Below, piece by piece: positions 21,370 to 57,055 of a stretch of DNA of 64,000 nt (positions within the stretch are counted from its first letter, which is position 1; every line of letters starts with the position of its first letter). The DNA lies in contig CALJHX010000023.1 of NCBI GenBank assembly GCA_937770485.1, forward strand, positions 25,772-89,771, written 5' to 3'. The notes under the pieces were generated by a model. It worked only from the letters and a program-made list of their open reading frames with translations. It searched no databases and had not been told where the DNA came from. The stretch comes from an uncultured Verrucomicrobiae bacterium. Lineage in GTDB: Bacteria > Verrucomicrobiota > Verrucomicrobiia > Limisphaerales > UBA1096. Both the position numbers and the translations under genes were made by a program.

Positions 21370-21440
21370 GCGTGGGCCTTCTCAAAGAACACGACGCCTC
21401 AGCCCATTGGGCGGATCGTCGTTTGAAATTTTCAACCTTC

Positions 21441-22103
21441 CTACTTTTTCTCGCCAGCACCGGCATCAGCTTCCTTGGTGCCCTCTTCAGTAGTAGCTTC
21501 GCCCTCACCCTCGGCTGCTGCTGCTGCATCTTCTTCCTCGGCCTTGGCCATCATGCGTGAGGTGGTCACGCCGAGCACCTGAGCCTTCGGCTGGCCGATG
21601 GCGATGATTCCTTCGGGCAAAACAAGCTCCTCCAAGAGGATCGATTGGCCAACCTCCAGTTGGCTGATGTCAGGCTCGATACATTCGGGAATGTCAGCCG
21701 GTTTGCCGTTAAGTGTGATCGAGTGCATAGGCATCTGCAAGACGCCTCCCAGTTGGACGCCTACAGCGGTTCCGAGAGGCAGCAGCGGGACTTTGGCAGT
21801 GACGACACTGTCCTTGGTCAAGCGTTTGAAATCGACGTGAATAAAATGATTCGTCAGGGGGTTTTTCTGCGTTTCCTGAACCAGGGCCATGCTCTTTTTG
21901 CCATTAATATCCAATTCCACGAGGAAATTCTTGGCCACGGTGGACTTTACGGCCTTTTCAAACTGCTTGGTTTCGAGCTCGACAGATTCGGGTTCGCCAT
22001 TGCCATAGACGACAGCAGGCAAAGAGCCGGCGTTGCGGAGTTTTTTGCTGCCAATAGTCTTGGTCAACACACGCGGATTGGCCGCCAATGAGATTACTTT
22101 CAT
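21441..22103 (-). CDS. rplY: 50S ribosomal protein L25 / general stress protein Ctc
   Basis: A 220-aa protein with an L25/Ctc N-terminal domain (RNAGSLPAVVYGNG) and an acidic C-terminal tail. It is part of a conserved prs-ctc-pth cluster. Confidence 0.88.
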   Translation of the reverse strand: MKVISLAANPRVLTKTIGSKKLRNAGSLPAVVYGNGEPESVELETKQFEKAVKSTVAKNFLVELDINGKKSMALVQETQKNPLTNHFIHVDFKRLTKDSVVTAKVPLLPLGTAVGVQLGGVLQMPMHSITLNGKPADIPECIEPDISQLEVGQSILLEELVLPEGIIAIGQPKAQVLGVTTSRMMAKAEEEDAAAAAEGEGEATTEEGTKEADAGAGEKK

Positions 22104-22133
22104 TTTATTAAATAACTTGCTCCCCGAGGGAGC

Positions 22134-23078
22134 TCAGGTGGTGCGCGCTCCCTTAAATTGGAACAGCGAGTTCACCGAGGAATTGTTGTGTATTCGCTGG
22201 ATGGCTTCTCCCAGCAATCCCGCAACAGAGAGAGTTGTAATATTCAACCCCTCGATTTCGGGGCGGGGGACTGTATCAGTCGTTATCAATTCGTCAATAC
22301 AAGAGTTTTTCAGGCGGTCAATACCCAAATCATTGAGAATTGTGTGCGATACACAGGCTCGGACACTCAGCGCTCCGCGTTCCTTGAGAATGGCCGCAGC
22401 GTTGACTAGCGTACCGGCGGTTTCGGTGAGATCATCAACCAAAAGCGCATTTTTACCTTCAATTTCGCCAATTATGCCCACGGACTCTGTATCGGTGGCG
22501 CTCGTGCGGCGTTTGGCGACGATCGCCAAATCGGCTCCGAGCATTTCCGAATAGGCGTGAGCCATTTTCAGGCCACCCACATCCGGACTGACAACAACTT
22601 GATCGTCCCGCTTGGCGTACTTGAGATAGGCGAATATCACTGGCGAGGCGTACAAATGATCCACCGGAATGTCGAAAAAGCCCTGAATTTGCTGTGCGTG
22701 CAGATCCATCGTCAAAATTCGGTTGGCCCCGGCGGCCACCAGCAGATTGGCCACGAGTTTGGCCGAGATCGGCACTCGCGGCTGATCCTTCCGATCCTGC
22801 CGGGCATAGCCGTAATACGGCAGCACCGCCGTGATGCGGTCAGCGCTGGCCCGCTTGAGCGCGTCCATTATGATGAACAACTCCATCAAGTGATGGTTTG
22901 TCGGCGGGCAGGTCGCCTGGACGACGTACACATCCTCACCGCGGACGTTCTCCTCGATCTTGGCGAAAGTCTCGCCGTCGGGGAAGGCGGTGATGGTGAG
23001 TTTTCCCGGGTCGATGCCAATGTTGCTGCAGATGGCATCGGCAAGCGGTAGGTTGGAACTGCCGGCAAATATTTTCAC
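22134..23078 (-). CDS. prs: Ribose-phosphate pyrophosphokinase
   Basis: GTG start (M)KIFAGSSN, with YYGYARQDRK and the PRPP-binding loop LLVDDLTETAGTL. Confidence 0.93.
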   Translation of the reverse strand: MKIFAGSSNLPLADAICSNIGIDPGKLTITAFPDGETFAKIEENVRGEDVYVVQATCPPTNHHLMELFIIMDALKRASADRITAVLPYYGYARQDRKDQPRVPISAKLVANLLVAAGANRILTMDLHAQQIQGFFDIPVDHLYASPVIFAYLKYAKRDDQVVVSPDVGGLKMAHAYSEMLGADLAIVAKRRTSATDTESVGIIGEIEGKNALLVDDLTETAGTLVNAAAILKERGALSVRACVSHTILNDLGIDRLKNSCIDELITTDTVPRPEIEGLNITTLSVAGLLGEAIQRIHNNSSVNSLFQFKGARTT

Positions 23079-23608
23079 GTCAGGTTTCGGTGTGGTCTGG
23101 GTTTCGGTTGTCGCTGCAGATTAGCCCTGCTCGCGACTGCGGAAAAGTAACAATTGCCAAACACCAATCAAGCGCATTCGTGCGCTTATGAAAAAATTAC
23201 AACATCGCTCCCCCTCGCTTGGCCAGAGGCTCCCGTGCTTCATCATGGGGTAAAGCCCAGATTCGTTTCTTTTTTTGCCCTTGACTGAGGGGGTGCAGCC
23301 ACAGGCCTCAATCCCTGAATATTCTATGATTTGTTCTTCAAAAAGAGCATTCACGGGTCTTTCGACGGATGAGATTAGTGTGGTCTGCGTTGGGCCGGTT
23401 TTGTTATCCGTTGCCTTCGGCCAAAACAGCTTCATTATTTTCATCTATCAGTTCTTTGGAAACCTGCGGGTCGTGCATTTTGGCTCCGGTTGTTGCGTTG
23501 GCGCGGCACCTCCACAAAACTCGCATCTGCGATGATTCCCTTCCAATCCACCCTCCTTCGGTGAGGTTTTTTTCAAACCGCGGGCACCCTGCCCCGCTTG
23601 GTCAAGGG

Positions 23609-24613
23609 CTAAAACCGGTTGAGGAAGCGGAGGTCGTTTTCGTAGAACAGGCGAATGTCGCTGATGCCGTAGCGGATCATAGCGATACGCTCGATGCCGA
23701 AGCCGAACGCCCAGCCGCTCCATTCTTCAGGGTCGTACCCGACGTTCTCAAACACCGTCGGGTGTACCATGCCGCAGCCGGCGATCTCGAGCCATTCCTT
23801 CCCCATCTTGCGGACGAGGGGGCTGCTGAAGTCGATCTCGAGGCTCGGCTCGGTGTAGGAAAAGTAATGCGGCCGGAACCGCAGTTTAACTTCCTTGCCG
23901 AGCAGTTCCTTAAACACAAACTCGACCGTGCCCTTGAGGTCGGCCATCGTCACGTTCCTGTCCACGTACAGGCCCTCGATCTGGTGGAAGGTCGGGTTGT
24001 GAGTGGCGTCGGCGGTGTCGCGGCGGTACACGCGGCCCGGCACGATGATGCGGATCGGCGGCGGGCTTTGCTCCATCACGCGAATCTGCACGGACGACGT
24101 GTGGGTGCGGAGCAGCGGCCGGTCGGCGGTGTCCAGAAAGAAGGTGTCCTGCGTGTCGCGGGCGGGATGATCGGCGGGAGTGTTAAGGGCGTCGAAGCAG
24201 TAACGCTCGCTCTCGATCTCCGGGCCGTCGGCCACGGCGAAGCCGATTTTGCGGAAGCTGCGGACGATGTCCTCGGTGACTTGGGTGAGCGGGTGCTGCT
24301 TGCCAAGCGGACGGCGGCGTCCCGGCGCGGTGAAGTCGGTGGCGCGTTGCGGGGCGGCGGCGGCGAGTTCGAGCTCCTCGCGACGGCGGTCGAGCGTCTG
24401 GGTGAGTTCGGCCTTGGCCAGGTTGATCGCCTTGCCGGCGGCGGGGCGTTCCTCCTTGGCCAAGGCACCCATCTGCTTGAGCAGTCCGGTGAACTGACCA
24501 TTGGTGCCGAGGTACTGGACGCGCACGTCGTCGAGTTTGGACAAGGTGTCGGCGGCTTGGAGTGCCTGCAGTGCGGCTTCCTTTAGCGGGGTGATTTCGT
24601 CCAGGAATGACAT
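23609..24613 (-). CDS. pheS: Phenylalanine--tRNA ligase alpha subunit
   Basis: The start is the ATG at 24613 (MSFLDEITPLKEA). Class II motifs are present (FRPHYFSYTEPS, GFGIERIAMIRYGI). Confidence 0.93.
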   Translation of the reverse strand: MSFLDEITPLKEAALQALQAADTLSKLDDVRVQYLGTNGQFTGLLKQMGALAKEERPAAGKAINLAKAELTQTLDRRREELELAAAAPQRATDFTAPGRRRPLGKQHPLTQVTEDIVRSFRKIGFAVADGPEIESERYCFDALNTPADHPARDTQDTFFLDTADRPLLRTHTSSVQIRVMEQSPPPIRIIVPGRVYRRDTADATHNPTFHQIEGLYVDRNVTMADLKGTVEFVFKELLGKEVKLRFRPHYFSYTEPSLEIDFSSPLVRKMGKEWLEIAGCGMVHPTVFENVGYDPEEWSGWAFGFGIERIAMIRYGISDIRLFYENDLRFLNRF

Positions 24614-40881: not shown

Positions 40882-42438
40882 TTAAGACTTGATCTTCGGA
40901 TCCCCGAGTTGGGGGAATTTGTGGAGTACAGACTTGGGAACAGTGTAGGGCCAGCCTTCATTTTGCTGGCGCGGGCCGGGGGTGGTGCGGCCGTTGCGGA
41001 AGGCTTTGGCGAGGTCGGCGGCGAGTTCTTTTACCTTGTCCGGATATTTGGCTTGGAGGTTTTTGGATTCGTTGGGGTCACTGGTGAGGTCGTAAAGCTG
41101 CAGCATCGGCAGCTTTTGTTTTGCGGCCTCGGCCTCACGCGGAGGGCTCCAGCCGCCGGAACCTCTGCACAGTAGCAGCTTCCACTGGCCCTTGCGGATA
41201 GCGAAGTGACCGCTCCCCGAGTGATGAATCACGACGTCATGCAGCGGCTTCTCAATCTTTCCCCCGCGCAACACCGGCAGCAGATTCACGCTGTCCTCGG
41301 CGGTATTGGCGGAGAGTTCGGTGCCGAGAATACCGGCGCAGCTGGCCATGATGTCGGTGAGTACGATGGTCTCGTCGCTGCGTGTGCCCGGCTTGACGTG
41401 CCCGGGCCAGCGTACGATGAACGGCACGCGATGACCGCCCTCGTAGGCATCGGCCTTCCAGCCGCGCCAGTTGGCATTGAGATGGACGCCCGCGGCATCG
41501 AGCTGCGGGAAGTTTGCCTGGGGCGAGGTGCCGTTGTCGCACGTGAAGAATACCACCGTGTTGTCCGCCTGGCCGGTTTCATCCAGCGCCTTCATGATTT
41601 CGCCCACGGCCCAGTCAGATTCGACGAGAAAATCGGCGTAGGGGCTGATGCCGGTGATGCCCTTGAACTTGCCGCCCGGAGCGATGGGCGTGTGCGGCGA
41701 AGGCATCGGGAAATAGAGGAAGAACGGTTGCTCCTTTGTTTTGCGGCCACGGACGTATTCCGCGCAACGCTTTCCGTACTCGAGCAGAACGGCTGAGAAA
41801 TCCCAGTCGGCCACCGCCGGCCCGGCGGAAACGCCGACCATCGTGCCTTGTTTCATCTGTGCGGTGGGGTTGCCAATGAGGCGCTCGTTTTCACGCCACG
41901 CGTAGGGCGGCCAGTTTGGCACGTCATCCCCAAAGTAGTAGTCGAAGCCGTGGCTGTTCGGCCCGCCATTGATGGGTTTGGTGAAATCGATCTCGTCGAG
42001 TTTGGGGGTGACGCCGCCCCCCTTCTTCGGCCAATGCCAGCCAAGATGCCATTTACCAATCATGCACGTGGCGTAGCCTTGCGCGCGAAACATTTCCGGC
42101 AACGTAAGGCGGGCATCGGCGATGAGCGGGCGCTCCCATTTCCCCACGATGCCGCGCTTGAGACGGCTACGCCAATTGTACCTCCCCGTCAGCACCCCGT
42201 AACGCGTGGGCGAGCACACGCCGGACGTGGAGTGCGCGTCCATGAAACTCATCCCCTCGCTTGCGAGTCGGTCAATCGCTGGCGTCTTCATGCCCATTTT
42301 CGGATTGAAAGCGGAAACGGAGTCGATGCCCATGTCATCGCCCAGAATGACGATGACATTCGGTTGAGGGGCGGCTGCGGCTCGGAAAGTCCCGATCAGA
42401 ACAGTCGCCGTGATGGCTAGTGTGATAGTGTGTTTCAT
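40882..42438 (-). CDS. Arylsulfatase (formylglycine-dependent, S1 family)
   Basis: A signal peptide and the sulfatase signature SGVCSPTRYGVLTGRY (CxPxR), over 518 aa. Confidence 0.88.
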   Translation of the reverse strand: MKHTITLAITATVLIGTFRAAAAPQPNVIVILGDDMGIDSVSAFNPKMGMKTPAIDRLASEGMSFMDAHSTSGVCSPTRYGVLTGRYNWRSRLKRGIVGKWERPLIADARLTLPEMFRAQGYATCMIGKWHLGWHWPKKGGGVTPKLDEIDFTKPINGGPNSHGFDYYFGDDVPNWPPYAWRENERLIGNPTAQMKQGTMVGVSAGPAVADWDFSAVLLEYGKRCAEYVRGRKTKEQPFFLYFPMPSPHTPIAPGGKFKGITGISPYADFLVESDWAVGEIMKALDETGQADNTVVFFTCDNGTSPQANFPQLDAAGVHLNANWRGWKADAYEGGHRVPFIVRWPGHVKPGTRSDETIVLTDIMASCAGILGTELSANTAEDSVNLLPVLRGGKIEKPLHDVVIHHSGSGHFAIRKGQWKLLLCRGSGGWSPPREAEAAKQKLPMLQLYDLTSDPNESKNLQAKYPDKVKELAADLAKAFRNGRTTPGPRQQNEGWPYTVPKSVLHKFPQLGDPKIKS

Positions 42439-42704
42439 GGTCGTTCGATGTTGATGGTTCGTCCCGGCAATGAGGGCGAGTGAATTTCGTGGATGGTTCC
42501 GTCTCTGCTTTCGACGACGAACACGCCGCCGATTCTCGCGTTAATTTCTGTCCTGTCGCCCGGCTTCACCACGGTTGGCCGGCGGCTTCGTTGGCCGCGC
42601 GGGGTGATGGCGTACACCTTGATTTCCGTGTCGGTTTTGTTGGCGATGAGCAGCGGGGCGGGTTGGCGGCCGCGGTTGGGGTTGGAATGCACGGAGGGCA
42701 CCAT
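42435..42704 (-). CDS. Small hypothetical beta-rich protein or domain (tentatively VHL-beta-domain-like)
   Basis: The ATG at 42704 gives 89 aa: ...LLIANKTDTEIKVYAITPRGQRSRRPTVVKPGDRTEINARIGGVFVVESRDG... Its stop overlaps the downstream sulfatase start (ATGA). The family assignment is only my pattern recognition. Confidence 0.3.
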   Translation of the reverse strand: MVPSVHSNPNRGRQPAPLLIANKTDTEIKVYAITPRGQRSRRPTVVKPGDRTEINARIGGVFVVESRDGTIHEIHSPSLPGRTINIERP

Positions 42705-43383
42705 CTGCAACGGGCGACGTGGATGGGTTTTTAACAAGCGCGAGGAAGAACGGTTTCTCCGCTTGGCCAAGCCGCCGCAGGTCTTCGATGGCCATGTTCG
42801 TATGCGCGCCGTCCACCAGTTGGTGGTCGTCAATCACCGGCGCGGCGGTGGCCGGGCCACGCAGATTGTTCTTTCGCCAGTCGTTGTCGGGCAGCTTGGC
42901 CTGCACCTCGCGGATACGCGCCTGCCAGCCCTTGGCATAACACCGTTGGAATTTAATGGGCCGGATTGGTTCGCTCCACGACTGCGGGTCGGGCGTCGGG
43001 TTATGATAAATCTTCCCGTGCCCCACCGCCGTGTAGCCGTGCCGGCGCAGCCACTGCGGTAGCGTCACCACATTGGGCTTGGCCTCGCGGAAATGAATCG
43101 GCAGCGTCCACACCCCCAGCGTGTCCGGCCGCTGCCCCGTCATCAGGCTCGCTCGCGAGGGATTGCAGACGGCCACCTGGCAGTGCGCTTGGTCAAACCG
43201 CACCCCGCGCTTGGCCAAGCGGTCGAGGTTCGGCGTGATCGCATGGCCGTCCCCATAGCAACCAATGGCCGGTCGCAAATCATCCACCGCGATGAAGAGA
43301 ATATTGGTCTTGGGCGCACTGGCCGCAGTAATGGTGCCCAACAACAGGGCGGCGGCACATTTTGCGGAACAAGGGAGACTCAT
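42541..43383 (-). pseudogene. Sulfatase remnant (N-terminal about 215 aa only)
   Basis: A signal peptide, the CxPxR signature VAVCNPSRASLMTGQRP and family-like sequence up to ...AEKPFFLALV. After that the frame runs into low-complexity P/R-rich sequence. A sulfatase of this type is normally about 450-550 aa, and only about 300 bp remain before the next gene. Confidence 0.55.
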
Positions 43384-44977: not shown

Positions 44978-46423
44978 TTAAGCCAAAATTTGTTTCACCA
45001 CCTTACCGTGGACGTCGGTGAGGCGGAAGTAGCGGCCCTGGTAGCGGTAGGTGAGCCGTTCGTGGTCGATGCCGAGTTGGTGCAGGATGGTGGCTTGCAG
45101 GTCGTGGACGTGCACGGGATTTTCAGTAACGTTGACGCTGTAGTCGTCGGTCTCACCGTAGGACATGCCGCCGCGCACGCCGCCGCCGGCCATCCAGTAA
45201 GTGAAACAGTTTGGGTGATGGTCGCGGCCGTAAACCTGCTTAGTCAGCTTGCCCTGGCAGTAGATCGTGCGGCCGAACTCGCCGCCCCAGACGACGAGTG
45301 TGTCGTCGAGCATGCCGCGCTGCTTGAGGTCGAGCAGCAGCGCGGCGGTGGGCCGGTCGGTGTCGCGGCACTGGGCGGGCACCTCTTTGGGGGCGTTGTT
45401 GTGGGCGTCCCAGCCGCGATGGTAAAGCTGGATGAAGCGCACGCCGCGCTCGGCCAGGCGGCGGGCGAGCAGGCAGTTGTAGGCGTATTTGCCCACCTTC
45501 GTGGCGTCGGGGCCGTATTGGTCGAGGATGTGCTGCGGTTCGCGCTGGACGTCGATCAGTTCCGGCACGCTCATCTGCATGCGGAACGCCAGCTCATACT
45601 GCGCTATGCGCGTGGCGATGGCGGGATCGTTAAACCGGCCGGCCTGGTCGCGGTTGAGTTTGCCGAGCGCATCGAGCATGCGGCGGCGCTGGGCGCGCGT
45701 GACGCCGGCGGGATTGTAAAGGTCGAGAATTGGATCGCCCTGGCCGCGGAATTTCACCCCCTGGAATCGCCCTGGCAAAAAGCCCGCGCCCCACAGCCGG
45801 TCGTAGAGAGGCTGACCGGCCTTGGCCCGTCCGTTGGAGGTCAGCGCCACGAACGCGGGCAGGTTGGCGTTCCCGCTGCCGAGCCCGTAGCTCACCCAAG
45901 CGCCCATGCTCGGCCGGCCGGGGAGCACCGAGCCGGTCTGGAACAGCGTTGCGGCCGGGTCGTGGTTGATGGCGTCGGTGTGCATGCTCTTGATCACGCA
46001 CACATCGTCGATGACTTGGGCCAGGTGGTGCAGCGGCTCGCTCAGCCAAGTGCCGGCCTGGCCGTGGCGGGTGAACTTGAGCGTACTCGGGGCACAGGGG
46101 AACGAGGCTTGGCCGGAGGTCATCGTGGTCTTGCGCTCGGCCGGGTAAATGGACTCGGGCACTTCCTCCCCGAAGCGCTTGGCCAAGTGCGGCTTGTAGT
46201 CGAAGAGATCCATCTGCGACGGGCCGCCGGACTGGAAAAGATAAATCACCCGCTTGGCCTTGGGCGCGAAGTGCGGCAGATCGGCCTGGCCACCGATGGC
46301 GTTGGGCTTGGCCGCCTGCGCGTTGAGCAGCGAGCCAAGCGCGATGCCGCCCAGTCCGAGCGTGCCTCGCCCAAGGAAGGCACGGCGAGTGTGTTGCGTG
46401 TGGAGTTCGGTCAGTGGGTTCAT
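44978..46423 (-). CDS. DUF1501 domain protein (sulfatase-fold, Tat signal)
   Basis: It has [21 protein letters not shown], and its length and sequence match the DUF1501 family. It closely parallels the paralogue at 52832..54205 (for example ...[29 protein letters not shown]). Confidence 0.88.
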   Translation of the reverse strand: [481 protein letters not shown]

Positions 46424-46820
46424 GTCAGTTTTGCATGATGCTAAAAACCTGAATTATAACCTGTTTTTTAAAGCTTTTTTGAAAATCTGAATTTTCAATC
46501 ACACTTTTTAAAGCCATCGAGGTTGCCTCTGTATTCATCCAATGAATCGTGCTCGATGTTGGTGCAGACCGAAGGCTTGCCCCTAACCTCTGAAAATGGA
46601 ATCCACCAAAATTCATTGCGCGGAATCAGTACCAAGTCTAAATAGCTACAATCGGCCTCTGAGTAAAGCTTAGAGGCCGCTCCGATTACCCCTTCTGGCT
46701 GACCTGCTCGTATGCTTTCGGTTCAGCCATCAACCCTTAGTTTTTAAGGTTGAAGGCATTTAGCGGCAACAGTTAAAACGGGTTGAAAACTCCGCTCAAC
46801 GGGGTGACAGTTCCCTCGCT

Positions 46821-48035
46821 ATGAAATCAATCCTACTAACAACTATAGCAGCCGTGGTTATGTTGCTATTCGGCGGGGTTAATGAGGTTAATGGGGATCC
46901 TTTGACGTACAAGGTTAAGGGAGAAACAGTTTCCGTTGTTAAATGTGATGAAAACGCCTCTGGAGAGGTGGTGATTCGCTCTTCCTATGCGGAGAAACCG
47001 GTCACCAGCATTGGGAAGAGTGCCTTCAGTGCCTGCAGTAGGCTGACGAGCGTAACGATCCCCGACAGCGTCACCAGCATTGGGAGATCGTGCCTTCCGA
47101 TACTGCAGTAAGCTGACGAGCGTGACGATCCGCGACAGCGTCACCAGCATTGAGGGGTGGACATTCGATTACTGCGGTAGCCTGACCAGCGTTAGATCCC
47201 CGAGAGCGTCACCAGCATTGGGAAGAAGGCCTTCGCTCACTGCAGTAGTCTGACGAGCGTGACGATTGGCAACAGCGTCACCAGCATTGGGAATTTGGCC
47301 TTCTATGACAGCGTTAGCCTGACGAGCGTGACGATTCCGGACAGCGTCACCAGCATTGGGAGCAGGGCCTTCGAATACTGTGGTCTGACGAGTGTGATTA
47401 TTGGCGACAGCGTCACCAGCATTGGATCGAATGTCTTCGCTTACTGCAGTAGTCTGATGAGCGTGACGATCCCAGACAGCATCTTAAGGGCTGGGTTCGT
47501 CAGGAGTGTTTTCAACCAGTCAAAAAAACCTGAAAAGCGTGACGATCTCCGGAAGTGTCACCAACATTCCGAAATATGCCTTTAATGGCTGCAGTAGCCT
47601 GACGAGCGTTAGAATCCCCGACAGCGTCACCAGCATTGCGAAATCTGCCTTCTCAAGCTGCAGAAGTCTGACGAGCGTTACTTTTGAAGGTGATGCGCCT
47701 TCACTTGAAGCTAATGTGTTCAGAAACGTATCCGGTAATGCCAAAATATTTATTAACCCGGGTGCAACCGGCTTTGGTGAAACCTTTGGAGGATTACCTG
47801 TTCTGATTCTTGAAAAGGCATTAAGTATTAATGCAGCTAACAAAACCGATTCTCCATTCACTATCAGCTTCGAAACCAAATCAGATTCAACCTACACAAT
47901 TGAAGCTCACGCATGACTTAAAGACAATGGGGCGAGATTGGCGAAGTCCAAGGCACCGGAAGCTCGGTTGAATTCACTGATTGGCGTAAAGCGCTTTTCC
48001 AGAAGCAGTACTATCGGGTGAAGTTGGCAGAGTAA
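46821..48035 (+). pseudogene. BspA-like leucine-rich-repeat (LRR_5-type) surface protein, broken by at least 4 frame changes
   Basis: A signal peptide is followed by repeated ...LTSVTIPDSVTSIG..AF..C.. units. The reading frame jumps at about 47082-47084 (extra G), about 47194 (missing base), the A7 run at 47521-47527 and about 47908-47925. The C-terminal module ...WGEIGEVQGTGSSVEFTDWRKALFQKQYYRVKLAE* ends at 48035. Confidence 0.7.
47001..47660 (+). repeat. About 10 tandem coding repeats with a nominal 69-bp period (LRR units)
   Basis: The anchor GTCACCAGC recurs at 47001, 47070, 47140, 47208, 47277, 47346 and 47412, with degenerate copies near 47555 and 47625. The spacings are 69, 70, 68, 69, 69 and 66 bp. 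Confidence 0.85.
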
Positions 48036-48108
48036 AAACTCAGCTTGATTAGAAAGTTGAAGGCAAATGAAACACCTCCAACAATTTTAGGTGGCGTACA
48101 TACATAAC

Positions 48109-49124
48109 ATGAAAATTTTATTTAGCGTTAGCGCTATAGTGCTTATAATTATAGGGTGTAATTATCCCAGATACAATTGACTCCGTAATCGTTCTATCAC
48201 CTCCAACTAGTCAGCCTAATCAAGTCGAAAAGACACCTATTCCCATACCATTAACGGAGATCGAGCTACCAACAGAGAACGAAAAATCAGCCTTAATAGA
48301 CAAAACAATAACCGTATTTGGAATCAAGGTTTTTGCATTGGAGGGGGTTACAGACCGAGATCTGAAACTAGTGGCGAATGTTCTAGCCCAGTGGATTGAT
48401 AACGATGAGGACGGGACACCAGATAATCCGGCCGTCCTCGCTGAGATTGTCAGACAGAAAAGCCGGATGATCCTTGGCGTCACTTTTGATCAAATCGGCC
48501 CGTGGCATGAGAATTCACAGGGGATGTTAAAGTATGTACATGCCCCTACCTATGGCTTGGATGTCACAACTATCAATCACAACTGGTATGGCCTGCCCCT
48601 TAGCGAGTATTCTCAGGATCATTACCGTACAGAAGGGCTTTTCCCGCCGGATGCAACAACAGAAGAAACCTTCCATCTCATAACGGACATTGGGTATGCA
48701 AACGTATATCCATCCACCTTCTGGCATGGTGAAGTAGGCGACAATCCCTCAGAGGCTCTTCGCTCTCATATCGCAAATCGTGGAGAAGGACAAAAGGATG
48801 CCTCTCTGTTAACGGTGGCGATGGACAACGCTCGCGGGGGGTATTTCAAACACATGCCAAAACAATATCCCGATAACGCGTGGTATACCCGGTCAGACGA
48901 CTGCGGAGTATAAATGTTTTGTCGGTGAATACATCCATTGGGGAATGATCACCCTTGTTGGCTATAACGAGACACGTGAAGAAGGTATTCAGGATCAGTG
49001 GCAGATAACAAACGCCCATTCTCTGCGTAATAGGGACCCTGCATTATATGGATTGCTCACGAACACTGAATATAACTTTCCTAAAACTGCCCCGGACGGA
49101 TCTTACGGTGATTTAAGCCAATGA
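48109..49124 (+). pseudogene. Lipoprotein of unknown function, broken by two frame changes
   Basis: The ATG at 48109 encodes MKILFSVSAIVLIIIGC (a lipobox) and then hits a stop. The body continues in another frame (ORF 48338..48913). The tail YKCFVGEYIHWGMITLVGYNE...DGSYGDLSQ* lies in a third frame and ends at 49124. Confidence 0.5.
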
Positions 49125-49208
49125 ATACTAAAGCAACCAGAACTCGCCGACCTCCTCCGCAAACACGGCGGCAAGACGGGTGAAGAATTGAAAGCTGAAG
49201 GGAAATGA
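49125..49208 (+). pseudogene. Orphan 3' fragment of an ankyrin-repeat gene
   Basis: It translates to ILKQPELADLLRKHGGKTGEELKAEGK*, a typical C-terminal tail of PVC ankyrin-repeat proteins. It has no upstream body. Confidence 0.4.
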
Positions 49209-49465
49209 AACAACATACCAATCACACAACAATCGCAGCCGTTGTGCTGGTGGGGTGTGGGCCGAGTGTGGATATTTGGACTGCTGCCGATAAAGGAAAC
49301 ATTGAAGCCGTCAAGCAGCACATCGCAGCTGGCACGGATTTGGATGCGAAGATGCAGGGTGGACATACTCCTTTGCTTTATGCGACTTTGAGTGGTCACA
49401 GGGAAATCGATGGACGACTTGAGGAATACGCCTTGGTTCAACTGGATGTTCTTCGAAGTTTCTGA
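49205..49465 (+). CDS. Ankyrin-repeat lipoprotein, probably truncated
   Basis: It has a lipobox (AAVVLVGCG) and one clear ANK repeat (DIWTAADKGNIEAVKQHIAAGTDLDAKMQGGHTPLLYATLSGH). It then diverges and stops after 86 aa. Confidence 0.45.
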   Translation: MKQHTNHTTIAAVVLVGCGPSVDIWTAADKGNIEAVKQHIAAGTDLDAKMQGGHTPLLYATLSGHREIDGRLEEYALVQLDVLRSF

Positions 49466-49574
49466 GTAATATGAAGAACTGGTCAGAAACTTTTGTTAAT
49501 CGCATCTATCCGGGCTCTCGAGTCTCGGTCAAAATGATCGACCCCCAGGTAGGAGACCGTATTGTTAGGTATCG

Positions 49575-52500
49575 ATGAATCGCCCGCTTCCCATCTTCGT
49601 CTGCTGCATCATGGCAAGCGCAACCTACGCAGGCCAGAAGTTCGACTTCGAAAAGTTCCGCGACCGCTTGCCCTGGATCTGGCAATCGCCCCGGCAGGTT
49701 GAGCCGCCCAAGGTAAAGGACTCGGTATGGCCGGCGGATGCGGTTGATCGCTTTGTGCTCCGGAAGTTGGAAGCTGAGAAGCTGCGACCGGCTGAACCAG
49801 CCAATGACCGGGTGTGGATACGGCGCGTATACTTCGCCATCACCGGTTTGCCGCCGAAGCCGGAGGATGTCCAAGCCTTCCTCAACGACACGTCCAAGAA
49901 TCGCAAACGCACGCTTGTACGCGCCCTGTTGGATTCCCCGCACTACGGGGAGCGCTGGGCACGTCATTGGATGGACCTCGTGCGCTATGCGGAGTCGCGC
50001 GGGCATGAAGGCGATGCCATTCTGCCCAATGCCTACCGGTATCGCGACTACCTAGTTCGCGCGTTCAATGCGGATCTGCCCTACGATGCCTTGGTCACCG
50101 AACATCTCGCAGGCGACCTGTTGGAAAACCCGCGACTGCATCCTGAAACGGGCGCCAACGAATCCATCCTCGCCACCGGCTGGCCCTTCTTTGGAGAGAG
50201 CTAGATCACGCCCGGTGGATCTCCGTAAGGACGAATGCGATCGCCTCGACAACAAAGTCGACGTGATGAGCAAGACCTTCCTCGGATTAACCGTAGCCTG
50301 CGCCCGCTGCCACGACCACAAGTTCGATGCCATACGCCAGCGCGACTACTATGCCATGGCGGGTTTCATCCTCAGTTCCAGTTACCGCCAGGCACGGTTT
50401 GAATCGATGGAACAGAACAAAGCGGTCGCGAAGAAGCTGGAAGGCTTGCGCCGGGACCACCTGCCGAAGATCGCGAAAGCCTTTGCCGCAGGCTGCGCGG
50501 CCCGTGGTCGATGCGCTGGACGACGATGTGCCCGTCGAGCCGATCTCCACACCATTGCCCCGTTGGACGAGACTGATCATGGCAGTGGATCCGGGTTCCC
50601 AAGGCGAAGCTTGGGCCAAGCTTTCCTTTGATCACGCCAAGTGGAAAACCATGAAACTGCCCGGTCATTTTGAAAACGCCGGGTTGCCCGGCCACGATGG
50701 CGTGGTGTGGTTTCGAAAAACCATCGAATTGTCTGCTGGACAGGCCAAGTCCAAGGCAGTCCTGAACCTCGGTCAAATCGATGACATGGACGTCGCCTGG
50801 GTCAATGGCTCGAGGGTAGGAGGCTACGAGAATCCCGGCCACCATTACACGGTACGGAAGTATCCCGTTCCCACGGGTCTATTGAAAGCGGGCAAGAACA
50901 CGATTGCCGTCCGTGTCATGGACCATGGCTGGCCCGGAGGCATCGCCGGCAAGCCGGAGCAGCTCGTCCTGCAGTTGGGGAAGGAAACCATTTCCCTCGC
51001 CAATGCCTGGCATTTTTCCCCGGGTGCGGACCTGAAGACACTCAATGAACAGGCCGCCCTTGTCAGGCCCGAGCTTGTGACGTCGCCCATTTATCCCGTG
51101 GAAGGGAAGCATCAAATGGTGGCCGATTATACCCAGGGACATACACCCTGGCTGGTAGACGGGCCGACCTTTGGGCAGATCTCCGGCTCTGCCGGGCCAG
51201 TTGATGCTGATCGCGGGCGACCAACCACTCGCGCTGTCCCGTAACGGCGGCGCGATCCGTGATCCCTTCTGGAACGGGCTCAAGAACATCGATAGTGAAA
51301 ACGATCCTGGAGGATTGCTGAATGGTTTGACGCGAGCGGGTAAAACCATTCGCACCCCGACCGTTACCCTGTCGTCGGGCCAAGTTCACTACCTGATCAA
51401 AGGAAAGGCGACGGTGTATGCCGCGGTCAGTCAAAACCTTTTTGCCGGCCCTCTACATGGAAGCCTGACCAGGAAGGTGGAAGCGAAAGGCGACGCACCG
51501 CAATGGATCGGACACAACCTAAAGCGCTATGCCGGTCAACGCGTACACTTCGAGTTTTCTCCGGTCGGCAATGAGCCTTTCGAGCTTCTCCGAGTCATCG
51601 ATGGCGGAACCCCCCAACACAAACCGGGAGAAAGGAAGGCGTTGTTACGCAAGGAATTGCACCAGGCGCTCGATGACCTTGCGGACGGCAAGCTGGAAGC
51701 ACGGCACGTACCCCATGTTGTCTGGTTGATCGAACATGGAAAAGTGAAGCTCCCAGACGAGTTGTCAAAGACCTGGAAAACAGCCCTCGAGGAGCCGAGA
51801 AAAGAAGCGCGATGGGATTCACAGCTAGCGGTCAGCTGGTGGGGAGGCAGCGGGGTAGATGAACACGTCCTCGACCGGGGCAGTCCTCAATCGCCAGGGG
51901 AACGCGTCGGTCGAAACCTGCCCGAACTTCTCGCCATGGCTCCATTGCCGAACCGAAGCCCCGGACGCCTGGAGCTTGCCCGGCAGCTTACGGCAAAGGG
52001 ACATCCGCTGACCTCTCGGGTCATGGTCAACCGGATCTGGCACCAGCTCTTCGGTCGCGGGATAGTACCCACACCGGACAACTTCGGCTGGCTGGGTCAG
52101 CGGCCGAGTCATCCGGACCTGCTCGATTACCTGGCCGTCGAGTTCACGGAGACCCATGCGTATTCGATCAAATCGCTCATTGAACGAATTGTGCTGACCC
52201 GAACCTTCGGGATGTCGAACACCGCGGCCGATCCGGTCTACGCGGATCAGGATCCAGACAATCAATGGCTACACCGCATGCCGGTGCGGCGGCTCGAAGC
52301 GGAAGCGATTCGCGACTCGGCGCTCGCCATTTCGGGCCGGCTTGACCGAACAATAGGAGGGAAATCGGTCCTTGTCCACCTGACCGAATTTGTCGTCGGG
52401 CGTGGCAGTCCCACGAAGAGCGGACCTCTGGATGGCGCAGGTCGACGATCCATCTATACCGCGCTCCGTCGTAATTTCATCCCTACATTTATGCTGACCT

Positions 52501-52835
52501 TCGATTTCCCTGCACCCTTCAGCACCGTGGGCAAACGGGATGTCACCAATGTCGCCGGTCAGTCCTTGACCTTGATGAATGATCGCTTTTTGTACGGGCA
52601 GAGCAGCGTCTGGGCGAGCCGGCTCATGAAGGAGCAGACGTCTGCGCCGGAACGCATCCAGCGGATGTACGCCGAGGCCTTTGCCCGTCCGCCCAGCGAC
52701 GTCGAATTGGCGGCATGCCTCGAGGCACTCACTGCGTTTATCGGATTATATGGGGGCGATCCCAACGGCCACGAGGCTTGGCGGGATCTCTGCCATTCGT
52801 TTTACAGCATGACTGATTTCATCTACCTGAAATGA
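49575..52835 (+). pseudogene. DUF1549/DUF1553 (PSD1-type) protein with an inserted jelly-roll sugar-binding-like segment, split into four ORFs
   Basis: ORFs 49575..50204, 50068..50631, 50327..51244 and 51171..52835 together read as one protein. The parts are DUF1549 (RRVYFAITGLPPKPEDVQAF, ...GLTVACARCHDHKFDAIRQRDYY), a GH2_N-like segment (WKTMKLPGHFENAGLPGHDGVVWFRKT...VAWVNGSRVGG...GKNTIAVRV) and DUF1553 (LTSRVMVNRIWHQLFGRGIVPTPDNFG). The frames step 0>1>2>0. Confidence 0.75.
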
Positions 52836-54205
52836 AGTATCCCTTCAGCACTCGTCGTGATTTTTTACAGAAGGCCTCGCTCGGCTTCGGCAGCTTGGCC
52901 CTGGCCGGCTTGTACGGGGCGCCGATAATTCCGCATTACCGCCCGCCCGCGAAGAACGTGATCTTCCTGTTCATGGAAGGCGGGGTTTCCCAAGTCGACT
53001 CCTTTGACTACAAGCCGATGCTGGCTAAGCATCACGGTGAGGATCCGCGAAAGGCCATCGGCAAGATCGAGGCCACCCAGTTCGAGAGCGTAGGAAAGGT
53101 GATGAAGTCACCCTGGGAGTTCAAACAACGCGGAAAATGCGGGGCCTGGATCAGCGAACTGTTCCCCCAGGTGGCCGAACTGGCCGACGAGCTGGCGATC
53201 ATTCGATCGATGACCGCCAATTTCCCCGAGCACACCAGTGCCTGTTACTACATGCACAGCGGATTGGGCTTGCAGGGCCGACCGAGCATGGGTGCGTGGG
53301 CGACCTACGGGTTGGGCAGCGAGAACAAAAACCTTCCCGGCTTCGTCGTGCTCAACGGCGGCCAGATTCCCTCCGGCGGCCTGGATAATTTTTCCAACGG
53401 CTTTCTGCCTGCGACCTACCGCGGCAACCTGTTGAACGTCATTGGCACCCCGCTCGCCAATGTGAAACCGAACGAGAAATCCGACCGGGCCCAGAAGATC
53501 AAGCGACGCCTGGTGCAGCAACTGAACCGGAGTACGGCCGGGGGCATCGACGCCTTGGAATCGGCGATTGCCAACCACGAGCTGGCGGCCAGGATGCAAC
53601 TGGCCATCCCCGAAGTCATGTCTCTGGACGGCGAAACCGAAGCCACCAAAAAACTTTATGGCTTCGATGCCAAATATAAGCACACGCAAACCTATGCGAG
53701 GGAGTGCCTGATCGCCCGGCGATTAATCGAGCGGGGCGTACGCTTCGTCGAGTTGACCATTCCCATGGTAAATGGATACCAGCGCTGGGATGCTCACAAC
53801 GACCTGGTGACGAATCACAGCACAAACGCACGCGCGGTGGACCAGCCGATCGCCGGCCTGATCCGCGATTTGAAGTCACGCGGCTTGCTGGATGAAACCT
53901 TGGTCGTCTGGACCGGGGAATTCGGACGTACCCCCTTCGCCCAAGGGGGCAAAGGTCGGGATCACAACGAATACGGATTCAGCCTCTGGATGGCCGGAGG
54001 CGGGATCAAGCCCGGCGTGACCTATGGTGCAACCGACGACTGGGGTTACAAGGCGGTGGATAACCCATTGCAGATACACGATCTCCACGCCACTATGCTT
54101 CACCTGCTCGGGATCGACCACGAGGAGTTGACCTACCGCTTCAGCGGCCGTGACATTCGACTGACCGATGTACACGGGAAGATCATCGAGGATATCCTGT
54201 TGTGA
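52832..54205 (+). CDS. DUF1501 domain protein (Tat signal), intact
   Basis: RRDFLQKASLGFGSLALAGL, 457 aa. The start overlaps the stop of the upstream pseudogene (ATGA). Confidence 0.9.
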   Translation: MKYPFSTRRDFLQKASLGFGSLALAGLYGAPIIPHYRPPAKNVIFLFMEGGVSQVDSFDYKPMLAKHHGEDPRKAIGKIEATQFESVGKVMKSPWEFKQRGKCGAWISELFPQVAELADELAIIRSMTANFPEHTSACYYMHSGLGLQGRPSMGAWATYGLGSENKNLPGFVVLNGGQIPSGGLDNFSNGFLPATYRGNLLNVIGTPLANVKPNEKSDRAQKIKRRLVQQLNRSTAGGIDALESAIANHELAARMQLAIPEVMSLDGETEATKKLYGFDAKYKHTQTYARECLIARRLIERGVRFVELTIPMVNGYQRWDAHNDLVTNHSTNARAVDQPIAGLIRDLKSRGLLDETLVVWTGEFGRTPFAQGGKGRDHNEYGFSLWMAGGGIKPGVTYGATDDWGYKAVDNPLQIHDLHATMLHLLGIDHEELTYRFSGRDIRLTDVHGKIIEDILL

Positions 54206-54645
54206 AGATGATCGGGGGCTCAAGTCTTAGGTTCCATTTCTTGTTGATTACGTACTTCGTAATTCCTTGCATGGGGTCTTTCTTCGGCGGTTCGTTTGGT
54301 TTGCTTTCATTAACGCTCCTAGCCTTGAGCGACTTTGCCAAATGGTCAAGATTTACATTGAGGTTCACGAACGCCGCCAGCGCATACATCCTCACATCCA
54401 GTGCTTCGCTGCGTGCCCGTGTCTTCTGCCACACCCGTGACTTCACTCCGTTTCGCACCCGAGCTACTGCCTTCTCAGCAGTCAATTTTTCAAAATACTC
54501 TTCGTCGTAGCCTTGCCCAATCGGGAAGTGACAGTAGCCAGCACCGCTGTCCTCGATCTTCAGGCACGAGTAGATTAACTCCTTGGCCGAGTCAACGCCA
54601 AGGCTGAACAGCGGTCTGTTAAGTGTGATTACATCATACTTTTTG
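54183..54645 (-). mobile_element. 3'-terminal remnant of a phage terminase large subunit (GpA family) gene
   Basis: The minus-strand frame is closed upstream by a TAA near 54646. It reads ...RPLFSLGVDSAKELIYSCLKIEDSGAGYCHFPIGQGYDEEYFEKLTAEKAVARVRNGVKSRVWQKTRARSEALDVRMYALAAF..., matching the C-terminal region of lambda-like GpA terminases. No N-terminal ATPase part is present. Confidence 0.6.
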
Positions 54646-54775
54646 AGGTTGTTTTAGGATTTAAAGGAATTTTATGGGAAACTATACGATAAAAGTAACC
54701 CCTTTTAAAATGATGGTTAAGTTGTTTTTTAAGACTGTTTTAAGGAGAATAAAATCAGTTCCGAATGATGCAAAT

Positions 54776-57055
54776 TCAGTTTTGTGTGATGGCCTCGTCG
54801 AGATTGAGGATGGTGTTGGCCACCAGCGCGTAGGCGGCCAGTTGGGCGGCGGGCAGCCTGGGGCTGCGCGGCTTCTCGCCAACGGATAAGAGCTTCTTTG
54901 CTGCATCTGGTTTTTTTCGGAAATCTTTCAAGTAAAAGAAAAAATCTTTCATTAACAAATCCAACTCCTCCTTGCGTGGTGCGCGGCTAGTCACGCGGCG
55001 AAACGCCTCCGCCACGCGTTGGCGCGGCCGCTGTCCCTTGGCTAGCATCATGCGCTCGGCGAGGAACCGTGCTGCCTCCACGAAGGTCTTGTTATTCATC
55101 ATCGTGAGCGACTGCAACGGTGTGGTGGTGAGGTCGTTGCGTACGATGCAAATTTCCCGCGCGGCGGCGTTGAAGGTCATCATCGTGGGGGGCGGTACCG
55201 TGCGACGCCAGTAGGTATATATGCTGCGCCGGTAAAGTTTGTCACCCTTGTCCTGCTTGTAGCTTGCGTTCGAAATGCTCTTCCAGATTCCCGGTGGCAT
55301 GTATGGCTTCACCGATGGCCCACCAGTTTTTCCACTTAGCAAGTCGCTTGTGAACAGCGCTGAGTCGCGAATCGCATACGGCGTGAGACGCTTGCGTGGG
55401 CCATGGGAGAGCAGTCGGTTTTCGGGGTCGCGCCGCTGCAGTTTGCGCGAAGCCGTCGAGTGCTGCCGGTAGGTGGCGCTGGTGACAATGAGCCGGTGCA
55501 TCGACTTCAGGTTCCAGTCGCGCCGCACGAACTCGGTAGCCAGCCAGTCGAGCAGCGCCGGGTTGCTAGGCAGTTCGCCCTGCACGCCGAAGTTTCCGCT
55601 TGTTTTTACGAGGCCAAGCCCAAAGTAACGCTGCCACAGGCGGTTCACTGTCACGCGCGCGGTGAGCGGATGCGCCGGATTGACCAGCCACCTTGCGAGG
55701 CCAAGGCGGTTGCGAGGCCATTGATCGTTCCACGAGCCGAGCACCGGTGGCGTGGCCGGATGCAGTTGCTCTGATTTGTCCGGTTGGTCATACAGGCCGC
55801 GCTCGAGTCGATACGTGTCGCGTGGCTTGGGCAACTCGTGCAGCACCATCACCGTGTTGGTTGCGCCCGGCTGCGGACGTGGCACGGAGGTTTGCACCAC
55901 CTTGATTTTCATCGGTGCGGGCACCACGAACTTGGCCTCCTCCGCCGACAAAACCGGCCAGCGCTTTGGCACCTCGATGAACGGCGGGCTGTTGCCATTG
56001 TTCGGCCCAAGGCCGGCCTCATCGATGTTGTTGAAGAAAGCAAAAAGCCGGTAGAAGTCCTTTTGTGTGACCGGGTCGAACTTGTGATCGTGGCAGCGCG
56101 AGCAGGTGAGCGTAAGCCCAAGAAACATCGTGCCCATCGTCTCTACGCGGTCGGCCACGTATTCAACGATCCACTCGTCCGGAATCGATCCGCCCTCCGA
56201 GTTGATGCGGTGGTTGCGGTTGAAGCCGGTGGCCACCTGCGTGAAAAAGTTTCTGTCTGGAATCAAGTCGCCCGCCATCTGCTCAGTGATGAACCGGTCG
56301 AACGGCATGTTATCGTTGAGTGCCCGGATCAGCCAATCGCGCCACACCCACATGTAGCGCAGCCGGTCGTTTTGGTAGCCGTCGGTGTCGGCGTAGCGCG
56401 ATGCCTCCATCCAGCCCAGCGCCATGTGTTCGCCGTAACGCGGCGAGTCGAGCAGGCGATCCACCGCCTTCGCGTAAGCCCCGGGTGAATGGTCTTCGAG
56501 GAAGGCGTCAAGTTCCGCGAGCGTGGGCGGAAGGCCGGTTAGGTCGAGAGTCGCGCGACGGAGCAGGGTGGCCTTGCCGGCTTCCGGCGACGGAGCGAGT
56601 CCTTCGCGCTCAAGCCGCGCCAGCACGAAGTGGTCGATGCCGTTGCGCGACCAGTCGGCGTCCCTCACCTTTGCCAAGCGCGGCCGCTTGGGCGGCACAA
56701 AGGCCCAGTGCCGGTCGTCGCTTGGCCAAGCGGCCCCGGCCCGGAGCCACTCGACCAGTTTGGCACGATCCGCATCGCGCAGCGGTCGGTTGGAATCCGA
56801 CGGCGGCATGCGTTCATCCGGATCGTTGATTGTGAGCCGGCGCAGTATTTCGCCGTCGGCAATCACGCCTGCCTCGAGCGCCGCTGCGCGGTCGTGCAGG
56901 CGCAGCTTCGCCTTGCGGGCATTGGCGTCGGGGCCGTGGCAATGGTAGCAGGCATCCGACAACACCGGTCTAATGTCGCGGGCAAAGTCTAACTGCGCCC
57001 CCGATGCCATGCTGCAAAGGAAAACTGTCGCCAAAAGGGGGATGATACGCACCAT
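54776..57055 (-). CDS. PSCyt1-DUF1549-DUF1553 (PSD1-type) protein, intact
   Basis: It has a signal peptide, the planctomycete cytochrome c motif CYHCHGPDANARKAKLRL, DUF1549 (RRATLDLTGLPPT, CSRCHDHKFDP) and DUF1553 (TVNRLWQRYFGLGLVKTSGNFG). It is 759 aa. Confidence 0.88.
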   Translation of the reverse strand: MVRIIPLLATVFLCSMASGAQLDFARDIRPVLSDACYHCHGPDANARKAKLRLHDRAAALEAGVIADGEILRRLTINDPDERMPPSDSNRPLRDADRAKLVEWLRAGAAWPSDDRHWAFVPPKRPRLAKVRDADWSRNGIDHFVLARLEREGLAPSPEAGKATLLRRATLDLTGLPPTLAELDAFLEDHSPGAYAKAVDRLLDSPRYGEHMALGWMEASRYADTDGYQNDRLRYMWVWRDWLIRALNDNMPFDRFITEQMAGDLIPDRNFFTQVATGFNRNHRINSEGGSIPDEWIVEYVADRVETMGTMFLGLTLTCSRCHDHKFDPVTQKDFYRLFAFFNNIDEAGLGPNNGNSPPFIEVPKRWPVLSAEEAKFVVPAPMKIKVVQTSVPRPQPGATNTVMVLHELPKPRDTYRLERGLYDQPDKSEQLHPATPPVLGSWNDQWPRNRLGLARWLVNPAHPLTARVTVNRLWQRYFGLGLVKTSGNFGVQGELPSNPALLDWLATEFVRRDWNLKSMHRLIVTSATYRQHSTASRKLQRRDPENRLLSHGPRKRLTPYAIRDSALFTSDLLSGKTGGPSVKPYMPPGIWKSISNASYKQDKGDKLYRRSIYTYWRRTVPPPTMMTFNAAAREICIVRNDLTTTPLQSLTMMNNKTFVEAARFLAERMMLAKGQRPRQRVAEAFRRVTSRAPRKEELDLLMKDFFFYLKDFRKKPDAAKKLLSVGEKPRSPRLPAAQLAAYALVANTILNLDEAITQN

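Follow-up and report, generated by a model that had tools for sequence, protein, structure and literature searches.

A palindrome-free gap reveals a probable prophage-derived island inside a native gene pair of a marine Limisphaerales bacterium

The window analyzed here is a 64-kb stretch of contig CALJHX010000023.1, from an uncultured bacterium of the Verrucomicrobiota (Limisphaerales), which carries many copies of the palindrome TTGGCCAA and one long interval without any. Within that interval, a native pair of genes, PSCyt/PSD1 and DUF1501 (here called the A pair), is split by 8,335 bp of inserted DNA that itself contains a second pair of the same two families (the B pair). The locus is organized as follows, in window coordinates.

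44978-46423, minus strand: DUF1501_A, native downstream partner (PF07394, E=4.8e-160; orthologues 72-85% aa in contigs L001-L005 and 96-98% nt in L096, L238 and L239)
46425-46440: left 16-bp direct repeat, TCAGTTTTGCATGATG, an orphan copy of the PSD1_A end, 1 nt from the DUF1501_A start codon (repeat search, junction sequences)
46821-47916, plus strand: BspA-type LRR_5 gene of the AT-rich block, split into four open reading frames (ORFs) in the window (PF13306 on fragments)
48155-48913, plus strand: hypothetical gene of the AT-rich block, GC 0.45 (255-337 aa in conspecifics)
49131-49465, plus strand: ankyrin-lipoprotein cassette, comprising the tail of one ankyrin gene and the next start, MKQ..TIAAVVLVGCG (weak Ank_2 match)
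49570-54232, plus strand: B-pair block, GC-normal and without TTGGCCAA (Pfam)
49575-52835, plus strand: PSCyt2/PSD1_B, frameshifted in the window
52832-54205, plus strand: DUF1501_B
54262-54611, minus strand: 3' remnant of a gpA-type large terminase, the last ~90 aa of the nuclease domain (PF20454 positions 203-290 of 294, E=8.5e-24)
54755-54770: third, degenerate repeat copy, TCAGTTCCGAATGATG, 5 bp inside the right junction (repeat search; a diverged form is present in L097)
54776-54791: right 16-bp direct repeat, TCAGTTTTGTGTGATG, the present 3' end of PSD1_A
54776-57055, minus strand: PSCyt1/PSCyt2/PSD1_A, native upstream partner (Pfam; orthologues beside DUF1501 in all relatives)

The A pair in relatives and the B pair both consist of adjacent, co-oriented genes, one with PF07583/PF07587, with or without PF07635, and the other with PF07394. 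The remainder of the window is core genome, with nuo genes, dprA, secG, tpiA, pgk, carA, the genes for L9, pth, L25, prs, pheS, rsmB and greA. The host is no planctomycete; its citrate synthase is labelled Limisphaerales or Pedosphaera, which places it in the Verrucomicrobiota instead. The Pfam names PSCyt and PSD1 do refer to planctomycetes, the region is rich in sulfatases, and the lineage is that of marine Verrucomicrobiota metagenome-assembled genomes (MAGs).

The insertion occupies positions 46441-54775, between the stop codon of PSCyt/PSD1_A and the start of DUF1501_A. We aligned the window by BLAST with three relatives, L096 (ERZ791561), L238 (ERZ23491875, scaffold_59, 33.5 kb) and L239 (ERZ23880238), which are 91-98% identical to it in nucleotide sequence. 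The flanks aligned up to 46440 and from 54776 onward, and the two alignments overlapped by 16 bp in the relative. At these empty sites, the PSD1_A stop codon lies 1 nt from the DUF1501_A start, and a single TCAGTTTTGCGTGATG is present. Synteny with the three contigs extends upstream over LuxE, LuxC, citrate synthase, SASA, sulfatase and 3-keto-disaccharide hydrolase genes, and downstream over three sulfatases, GSDH and ScpA. The A pair is also adjacent in the distant relatives L001-L005, which were recovered via DUF1501_A, with spacings from a 14-bp overlap to a few hundred base pairs; the two genes overlap in L003. A scan of metagenome contigs with PSD1_A returned only distant relatives (≤79% aa), and an exact-protein look-up of DUF1501_A gave no match, the window strain being different from recorded sequences. 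Together, these results establish that the ancestral order was PSCyt/PSD1_A stop, 1 nt, DUF1501_A start. The expectation that the segment at 46.4-54.8 kb would be absent from relatives was thus borne out: it is missing, as a genomic island would be, at the orthologous site of three close, syntenic relatives, and the interval first proposed agrees with the mapped insertion nearly to the base.

The 16-mer TCAGTTTTGCGTGATG corresponds to the last five codons and the stop codon of PSD1_A. The empty sites have a single copy of it; the window has two, the insertion having duplicated the last 16 bp of PSD1_A and left one copy at each end. Flanking direct repeats, of which the empty site keeps one, are typical of integrated prophages. 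A tRNA or other RNA gene as the integration target was rejected, since no tRNA or Rfam feature was found at 44-58 kb.

We found 42 exact copies of TTGGCCAA in the window, against a mean of 1.34 and a maximum of 4 in dinucleotide-preserving shuffles. By codon phase, the copies distribute 18/13/7, and 4 sites are intergenic; the occurrence in all three frames and between genes shows that TTGGCCAA is a DNA-level feature and not a peptide motif. The extended consensus around it is symmetric (sCGC-TTGGCCAA-GCGs). The density outside the insert is 0.755 per kb. One-mismatch variants are also ~3-fold enriched there (90 copies, 1.6 per kb), in contrast to the insert, where their 5 copies (0.6 per kb versus ~0.5 per kb expected) correspond to chance. 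The motif is specific to the lineage, with 0.87-0.97 copies per kb in L002, L096, L097, L238 and L239, 0.14 per kb in L001 and none in L003-L005. In native DNA of the window, it is sparsest at 18137-24456 (the L9, pth, L25, prs and pheS block), where two gaps reach 3.5 and 2.8 kb.

The consecutive copies at 46179-46186 and 56722-56729 start 10,543 bp apart and enclose 10,535 bases that lack the motif (46187-56721). As originally predicted, not one copy lies in this interval, which is the sole large gap of the window (the next largest are 4,191, 3,508, 3,263 and 3,060 bp), and the predicted shortfall of about eight copies agrees with the density outside the insert. For 42 points placed uniformly in 64 kb, a maximal gap of 10,543 bp or more has a probability of 0.021; at the rate seen outside, the 8,335-bp insert would be free of copies with a probability of 0.0019. 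Beyond the insert, gap lengths are near-exponential (gamma shape 1.09, coefficient of variation 0.82). The objection that such gaps might be common in core DNA found no support in ~139 kb of partly overlapping host-lineage DNA (the window minus the insert, L002, L096, L097, L238 and L239), where none was comparable and the largest measured 4.2 kb.

Both flanking motifs are native. The copy at 46179, in DUF1501_A, is common to L002, L096 and L238 at the orthologous position, as is the copy at 56722, in PSD1_A, to L002, L096, L097 and L238. When the insert is removed, the distance between the two falls to 2.2 kb, and the same interval measures 2,192 bp in the empty-site contig L238. The insertion accounts for ~79% of the gap, and the rest is ordinary native spacing. 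A foreign history for the whole gap, as first proposed, therefore holds for the 8,335-bp insert and fails for the remaining 2.2 kb, which consist of the native 5' end of DUF1501_A and most of PSD1_A. The prediction had also pointed to a degenerate GCTTGGGCCAAGC near 50610. The sequence exists, at 50608-50620, but it is found verbatim in the motif-poor homologues L091, L099 and L241, and so represents ancestral coding sequence and not a decayed motif. Altogether, the motif-free gap results from the insertion of 46441-54775 with a chance-level motif density, and very probably it exists because 8,335 bp of foreign, partly phage-derived DNA entered the native gene pair.

The insert is a mosaic of three parts, the terminase 3' end, an AT-rich cargo and the B pair. 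The terminase remnant is 89.7% identical in nucleotide sequence to terL of the viral contig L095 (IMGVR_UViG_3300027839_001491) and could also be aligned with L182, L184 and L185. Genuine caudoviruses are represented by L182-L184, which have terS, terL, a lambda-type portal and a protease-capsid fusion. Immediately downstream, their terL is followed by reverse-oriented cargo genes for an ankyrin protein (264 aa in L182) and a helix-turn-helix protein, the coding and 5' sequences of which are homologous to window positions 49131-49415 and 46726-46790. By blastn/tblastx and module alignment, the ankyrin-lipoprotein cassette at 49131-49465 is homologous to these cargo genes just downstream of terL. 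The LRR, hypothetical and ankyrin genes of the window and its B pair are all oriented to the terL remnant as the phage cargo is to terL. Of packaging and structural genes, the insert holds a fragment only, the C-terminus of the gpA terminase. L095 encodes a weak C-terminal fragment of a tyrosine integrase (PF00589, E=0.038).

L095 also carries TTGGCCAA at 0.36 per kb (2 copies in 5.5 kb, far above chance). One full copy lies in its terL (5147-5154), where the window remnant has TTGGGCAA (54513-54520) and distant phages have ATCGGSAAC; the phage lineage itself has been drifting toward the host motif.

In the AT-rich block, the LRR_5 gene is intact in conspecific contigs, with 390 aa (PF13306 E=6.7e-82 for the copy in L084), and is broken in the window by private indels at 47014-47923. 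The gene at 48155-48913 had no Pfam or PHROG match. A recurrent junction module, an ankyrin tail (..LLRKHGGKTGEELKAEGK*) followed by a lipoprotein-like start (MK..TIAAVVLVGCG), is seen in the window at 46726-46790, 48023-48082 and 49131-49265, in phage contigs just after terL (L182 2750-4113; L184 3846-4687) and beside the B pair in other contigs (L098 4580-4710 and 7251-7347; L240 3676-3777 and 6324-6453). It looks like a cassette array.

The B pair shares only 43% aa identity with the A pair, and a recent duplication of the A pair as its source was rejected for that reason. The closest B pairs, 91-94% identical in nucleotide sequence, are those of L098 and L240, where the pair is followed by a sulfatase and an ankyrin gene. 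L091, L099, L241 and L242 match at 85.7% nt over exactly 49570-54232, in a context of beta-lactamase, B pair and other genes, and DUF1501 alone is 89% identical in nucleotide sequence in Roseibacillus MAGs. The genomic surroundings of B-pair homologues (86-96% aa) are different ones and, L099 excepted, contain 0-1 motif per 7-21 kb. Those with names belong to Roseibacillus, Akkermansiaceae and Verrucomicrobiales; the nearest homologues are thus found in lineages and contexts other than the host's, the names being MAG annotations and not a controlled phylogeny. The B-pair and terL homology tracts abut at 54262-54265.

The DUF1549/DUF1553 gene of the B pair had been described as a pseudogene. 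Its frameshifts occur in the window copy alone, conspecific contigs having an intact gene of 1,073 aa. Decay as a property of the island was rejected, since its genes are intact in these contigs. The window also shows 124 private differences at 47000-51200 relative to at least 4 mutually agreeing conspecific contigs. All 19-22 of its 1-bp indels fall in this tract, and mismatches reach 20-50 per kb, versus 0-7 across the remaining 17 kb of the comparison. Both the LRR gene and PSCyt2/PSD1_B, in its N-terminal half, are disrupted by these changes; the substitutions tend to run from AT to GC and, in PSD1_B, toward third codon positions (19/10/6). A divergent allele acquired by recombination, decay specific to this strain or a local problem of the consensus could explain the tract. 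Within the same gene, the galactose-binding-like domain (50538-51046) has an 84% nt match to L091 12156-12664, a second copy of this domain in a neighboring 3-keto-disaccharide-hydrolase/GDSL gene, and identity to L091 rises to 97% at window positions ~50560-50670, compared with 85.7% over the entire block.

Composition set only part of the insert apart. In sliding 3-kb windows, the tetranucleotide distance was 0.39 at 46-50 kb and ~0.26 at 49-53 kb, versus 0.185 ± 0.023 elsewhere. The AT-rich block (46441-49569) and the right block had distances of 0.44-0.54, compared with 0.12-0.21 in controls, and the AT-rich block was compositionally nearest to the L098 flank. The B pair lay at 0.189 from Roseibacillus-type flanks, about as near as to the host (0.230), and at 0.226 from L091 flanks, whereas native genes were at 0.30-0.41 from those flanks, with 0.32-0.37 for the Roseibacillus ones. 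The k-mer comparison suggested along with the original prediction thus flags the AT-rich part and does not flag the GC-normal block; for the latter, tetranucleotide distance was rejected as evidence of foreignness, the control with the native paralogue giving an equal value.

From this evidence we propose, with somewhat better than even confidence, that the DNA arrived with a temperate, lambda-like phage belonging to the L095/L182 group and equipped with a gpA-type terminase, which would have integrated site-specifically at the 3' end of PSD1_A and later undergone internal deletions. The deletions would have removed the integrase through mid-terL and everything past the cargo array, leaving the terL 3' end and the array that in related phages is located downstream of terL. 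The attP of such a phage would contain TCAGTTTTGYRTGATG. The B pair may well come from a motif-poor donor among the Verrucomicrobiales (Akkermansiaceae/Roseibacillus-like), either as phage cargo or by a later insertion beside the truncated terL.

Several observations weigh against a foreign, prophage-derived origin. Pfam and PHROG scans found no integrase, excisionase, portal, capsid or tail gene in the insert. The 16-bp core was absent from L095 (≤3 mismatches) and from 57 related viral loci (≤2 mismatches), and a 22-base junction pattern fitting the window and L097 had no match in IMG/VR. We found neither an integrase beside the att site nor an attP with the core in a free phage, so that the repeat, the empty sites and the terL fragment are the sole basis for deducing the integration mechanism. 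Each repeat copy differs by one base from the empty-site core, with CA and TG in place of CG, and the B pair is no farther from the host in composition (0.230) than the native paralogous A pair (0.237). The taxonomy of the putative B-pair donor depends on MAG names. L099 (ERZ27250178 k141_484130), which has an intermediate motif density, is motif-free over 8.7 kb (1-8687), a stretch that includes the L099 copy of the B pair along with genes for transketolase and a beta-lactamase-family protein and is followed by 6 motifs within 5 kb. As it contains no obvious island, such gaps are no universal proof of foreignness. Finally, the insert is present in all 10 conspecific contigs, with its right end in L097, and its occupancy is discordant with the PSD1_A tree.

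The repeat variants are the same in all conspecific contigs inspected. CG occupies positions 10-11 of the core, and the window reads CA in the left copy (46434-46435) and TG in the right copy (54785-54786). This difference could stem from a crossover, falling between the two bases, with a diverged attP that carries TA, or from two later independent CpG transitions. The right copy of L097 has CA, a poor fit to a simple crossover model.

The insert is not confined to the window strain. At least 16 contigs from marine samples, Fram Strait and Tara among them, encode an identical (100%) DUF1501_B, and 10/10 conspecific contigs inspected (L081-L090, ~99% nt to the window) carry the same insert with the same repeat variants. 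In L097, whose PSD1_A is 93.5% identical, the homologous right end of the insert is present up to the contig end, 71 bp in. Since it occurs in the 10 conspecific contigs and its right end in L097, the insertion is not recent. In PSD1_A, both the window (95.0%) and L097 (96.2%) have a closer match in the empty-site contig L238. Such patchy occupancy is what repeated site-specific insertion and excision, or recombination between strains, would give.

Could the DNA be foreign without being a prophage? Stepwise insertions, a non-phage integrative island or illegitimate recombination following uptake of DNA, with terL as an incidental passenger, would fit an insert that is unambiguously of phage origin over just ~350 bp, consists of at least three parts of different composition, and yielded no integrase or attP in the searches made. 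Ankyrin-lipoprotein cassettes also adjoin the B pair in L098 and L240, contigs not known as viral, and the window encodes dprA (8897-9997). However, the passage from the terL 3' end to reverse-oriented ankyrin-type cargo has the order and orientation seen in L182-L184. The duplicated gene end, the precise empty sites and the patchy distribution form the classical signature of integrase-mediated insertion, and the right-end sequence, including the third repeat copy, is kept in L097. We therefore regard such an origin as unlikely.

It is very unlikely that the 8.3 kb are ancestral and were precisely and repeatedly deleted in relatives, the motif being missing for some other cause. Occupancy does depart from the PSD1_A gene tree, in which the occupied L097 is nearest to the empty L238. 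Deletion between 16-bp repeats is also mechanistically possible, and a 786-bp deletion between 9-bp repeats is found nearby. Nonetheless, the pair is adjacent in all five distant relatives, which represent several differently named MAG lineages and include the overlapping genes of L003. The 16-bp repeat is the 3' end of a gene, of which the orphan copy has no function where it stands, and the contents are a phage terminase fragment and genes with nearest relatives in other genomes and contexts. The lack of any motif speaks against long residence, and precise excision would itself imply a mobile element. The nearby deletion, at 42737-42745, is seen in comparison with L096, L238 and L239: 786 bp that these contigs have between two 9-bp direct repeats, AGCGCGAGG, are missing from the window, and a sulfatase of 580 aa in the relatives is truncated into ORFs 42435-42833 and 42541-43383.

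Chance, in which the gap would be the tail of a roughly Poisson motif spacing in native DNA, has only the slightest probability. The near-exponential gaps outside the insert fit it, about one gap of at least 10 kb is expected in a genome of several megabases, and the largest gap was picked after looking. Set against this are the two low within-window probabilities, the match to the base between the interval and an insertion missing in eight relatives with a 16-bp duplication at its ends, and the reduction of the gap to 2.2 kb without the insert. Hardly more credible is selection against the motif in these genes, as proposed for highly expressed genes with HIP1: ribosomal protein genes of PCC 7942 do lack HIP1 (PMC3025956), native motif density is at its minimum over the ribosomal/translation block at 18-24.5 kb, and the B pair of L099 is motif-free upstream of DNA with 6 motifs, but in the same two families the native paralogues do contain the motif (2 copies in the window, 5 in L002), it is found in every reading frame and between genes, one-mismatch variants in the insert are at chance level, and the insert includes non-coding and decayed sequence.

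Foreign, phage-assisted insertion thus remains our preferred account, and comparison of relatives indicated how the motif itself evolves. The motifs of the A pair are orthologous to those of L002, and the motif-poor L001 and L003 have near-miss sequences at these places. Gains and losses between close relatives are single substitutions. These results demonstrate that TTGGCCAA arises in place by point substitution in the Limisphaerales lineage, with slow turnover. Over 17.9 kb at 5.9% divergence, the window and L238 share 11 sites, with 2 found only in the window and 7 only in L238; the corresponding numbers of shared, window-only and relative-only sites are 7/3/5 for L096 and 5/1/3 for L097. 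Gains in the window lineage amount to ≤0.11 per kb over ~6% divergence, or ≤0.9 expected in the whole insert, so that zero copies gives no date. The proposal that the motif acts as an amelioration clock was therefore right in direction, zero copies fitting an insertion younger than the deep history of the clade, and wrong as to dating, for which turnover is too slow. That the segment has resided for less time than its surroundings is supported by the empty sites in relatives.

The L238-only sites correspond to window positions 39521, 43189, 60163, 57206, 59127, 61010 and 37930. At 3/7 of them (39521, 43189 and 60163), the window reads TTGGTCAA or TTGACCAA, with GGTC for GGCC. A C/T change at the inner C of GGCC is the one expected from deamination of a methylated cytosine, which would be a mere hint of 5-methylcytosine. 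No DNA methyltransferase turned up among the scanned genes of the 64-kb window. The presence of dprA, which encodes the transformation-associated DNA-processing protein A, in the core flank is a weak hint toward a motif of the uptake-sequence type.

The closest parallel to TTGGCCAA is HIP1 (GCGATCGC), whose scarcity flags recently acquired (xenologous) genes in Synechococcus elongatus PCC 7942; it is believed to arise in situ and has few copies in genes for ribosomal proteins (PMC3025956; further HIP biology in PMC4390886 and PMC5861425). Both are 8-bp palindromes that are tens-fold over-represented, occur in genes in any frame and are thought to have formed in place by mutation; in the case of TTGGCCAA, we found strong over-representation, presence in genes in all frames and origin by substitution without transposition. 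In both, motif-poor genes are inferred to be xenologous, and ribosomal or highly expressed genes are also poor; the low density at 18137-24456 is in line with the dearth of HIP1 reported for ribosomal protein genes. The motif and the phylum differ, and the inference from TTGGCCAA was verified by empty-site relatives and exact junctions and not by codon usage, unlike in the HIP1 study. Our search of the searchable library found nothing relevant on TTGGCCAA or on a HIP-like motif in Verrucomicrobia.

In Neisseriaceae, unusual distribution patterns of DNA uptake sequences (DUS) have been used to find integrative and conjugative elements (PMC7371117). The likeness lies in a short motif at ~1 per kb of chromosomal background, against which mobile elements appear as gaps or atypical distributions. 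In contrast to TTGGCCAA, which has no known function, DUS are non-palindromic and have a demonstrated function in DNA uptake, and the element described here is a decayed remnant and not an active integrative and conjugative element.

The island itself can be set beside other known systems. Cryptic (defective) lambdoid prophages occupy the 3' end of a host gene, their att core being duplicated. The island resembles them in its repeat, which is the 3' end of the target gene, its precise empty site, its gpA-type terminase remnant and its kept reverse-oriented cargo ("moron") genes, with most phage functions lost. It differs in that integrase and attP were not recovered, in that more than half of the remnant is a metabolic-type pair, PSCyt2/PSD1-DUF1501, which is atypical as phage cargo, and in that the target is the partner gene of the same family. 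In the amelioration concept of Lawrence and Ochman, foreign DNA drifts from the donor's signature to the host's and so provides a relative clock. Here the signal is one oligonucleotide and not base composition, and, once calibrated, proved too slow for dating.

The principle that motif scarcity marks foreign DNA is already published for HIP1 and DUS, and the island is an ordinary genomic island; our results support it as a new instance of this, probably prophage-derived and revealed by a motif-poor gap. Biologically, it is modest, probably a decayed prophage with kept cargo that splits an operon-like pair of unknown function. An 8-mer count nevertheless flagged an island that GC content would half miss, owing to its 4.7-kb GC-normal block, and metagenomic relatives allowed it to be verified to the base. 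The comparison with relatives also provides a first calibration of slow gain and loss for such an iterated palindrome, which is relevant to users of motif clocks. The motif itself is a more interesting object than the island and constitutes a separate finding. Tentatively, TTGGCCAA might be a previously undescribed HIP1-like palindrome of a marine Limisphaerales clade, at ~0.9 per kb and formed in place, with core cytosine methylation suggested; the motif-free island may then record a temperate phage with its attachment site at the PSCyt/PSD1 3' end, perhaps ferrying a paralogous PSCyt2/PSD1-DUF1501 pair between verrucomicrobial orders. If true, this would mean that phages mediate the spread of the large, still uncharacterized PSCyt2/PSD1-DUF1501 gene-pair family.

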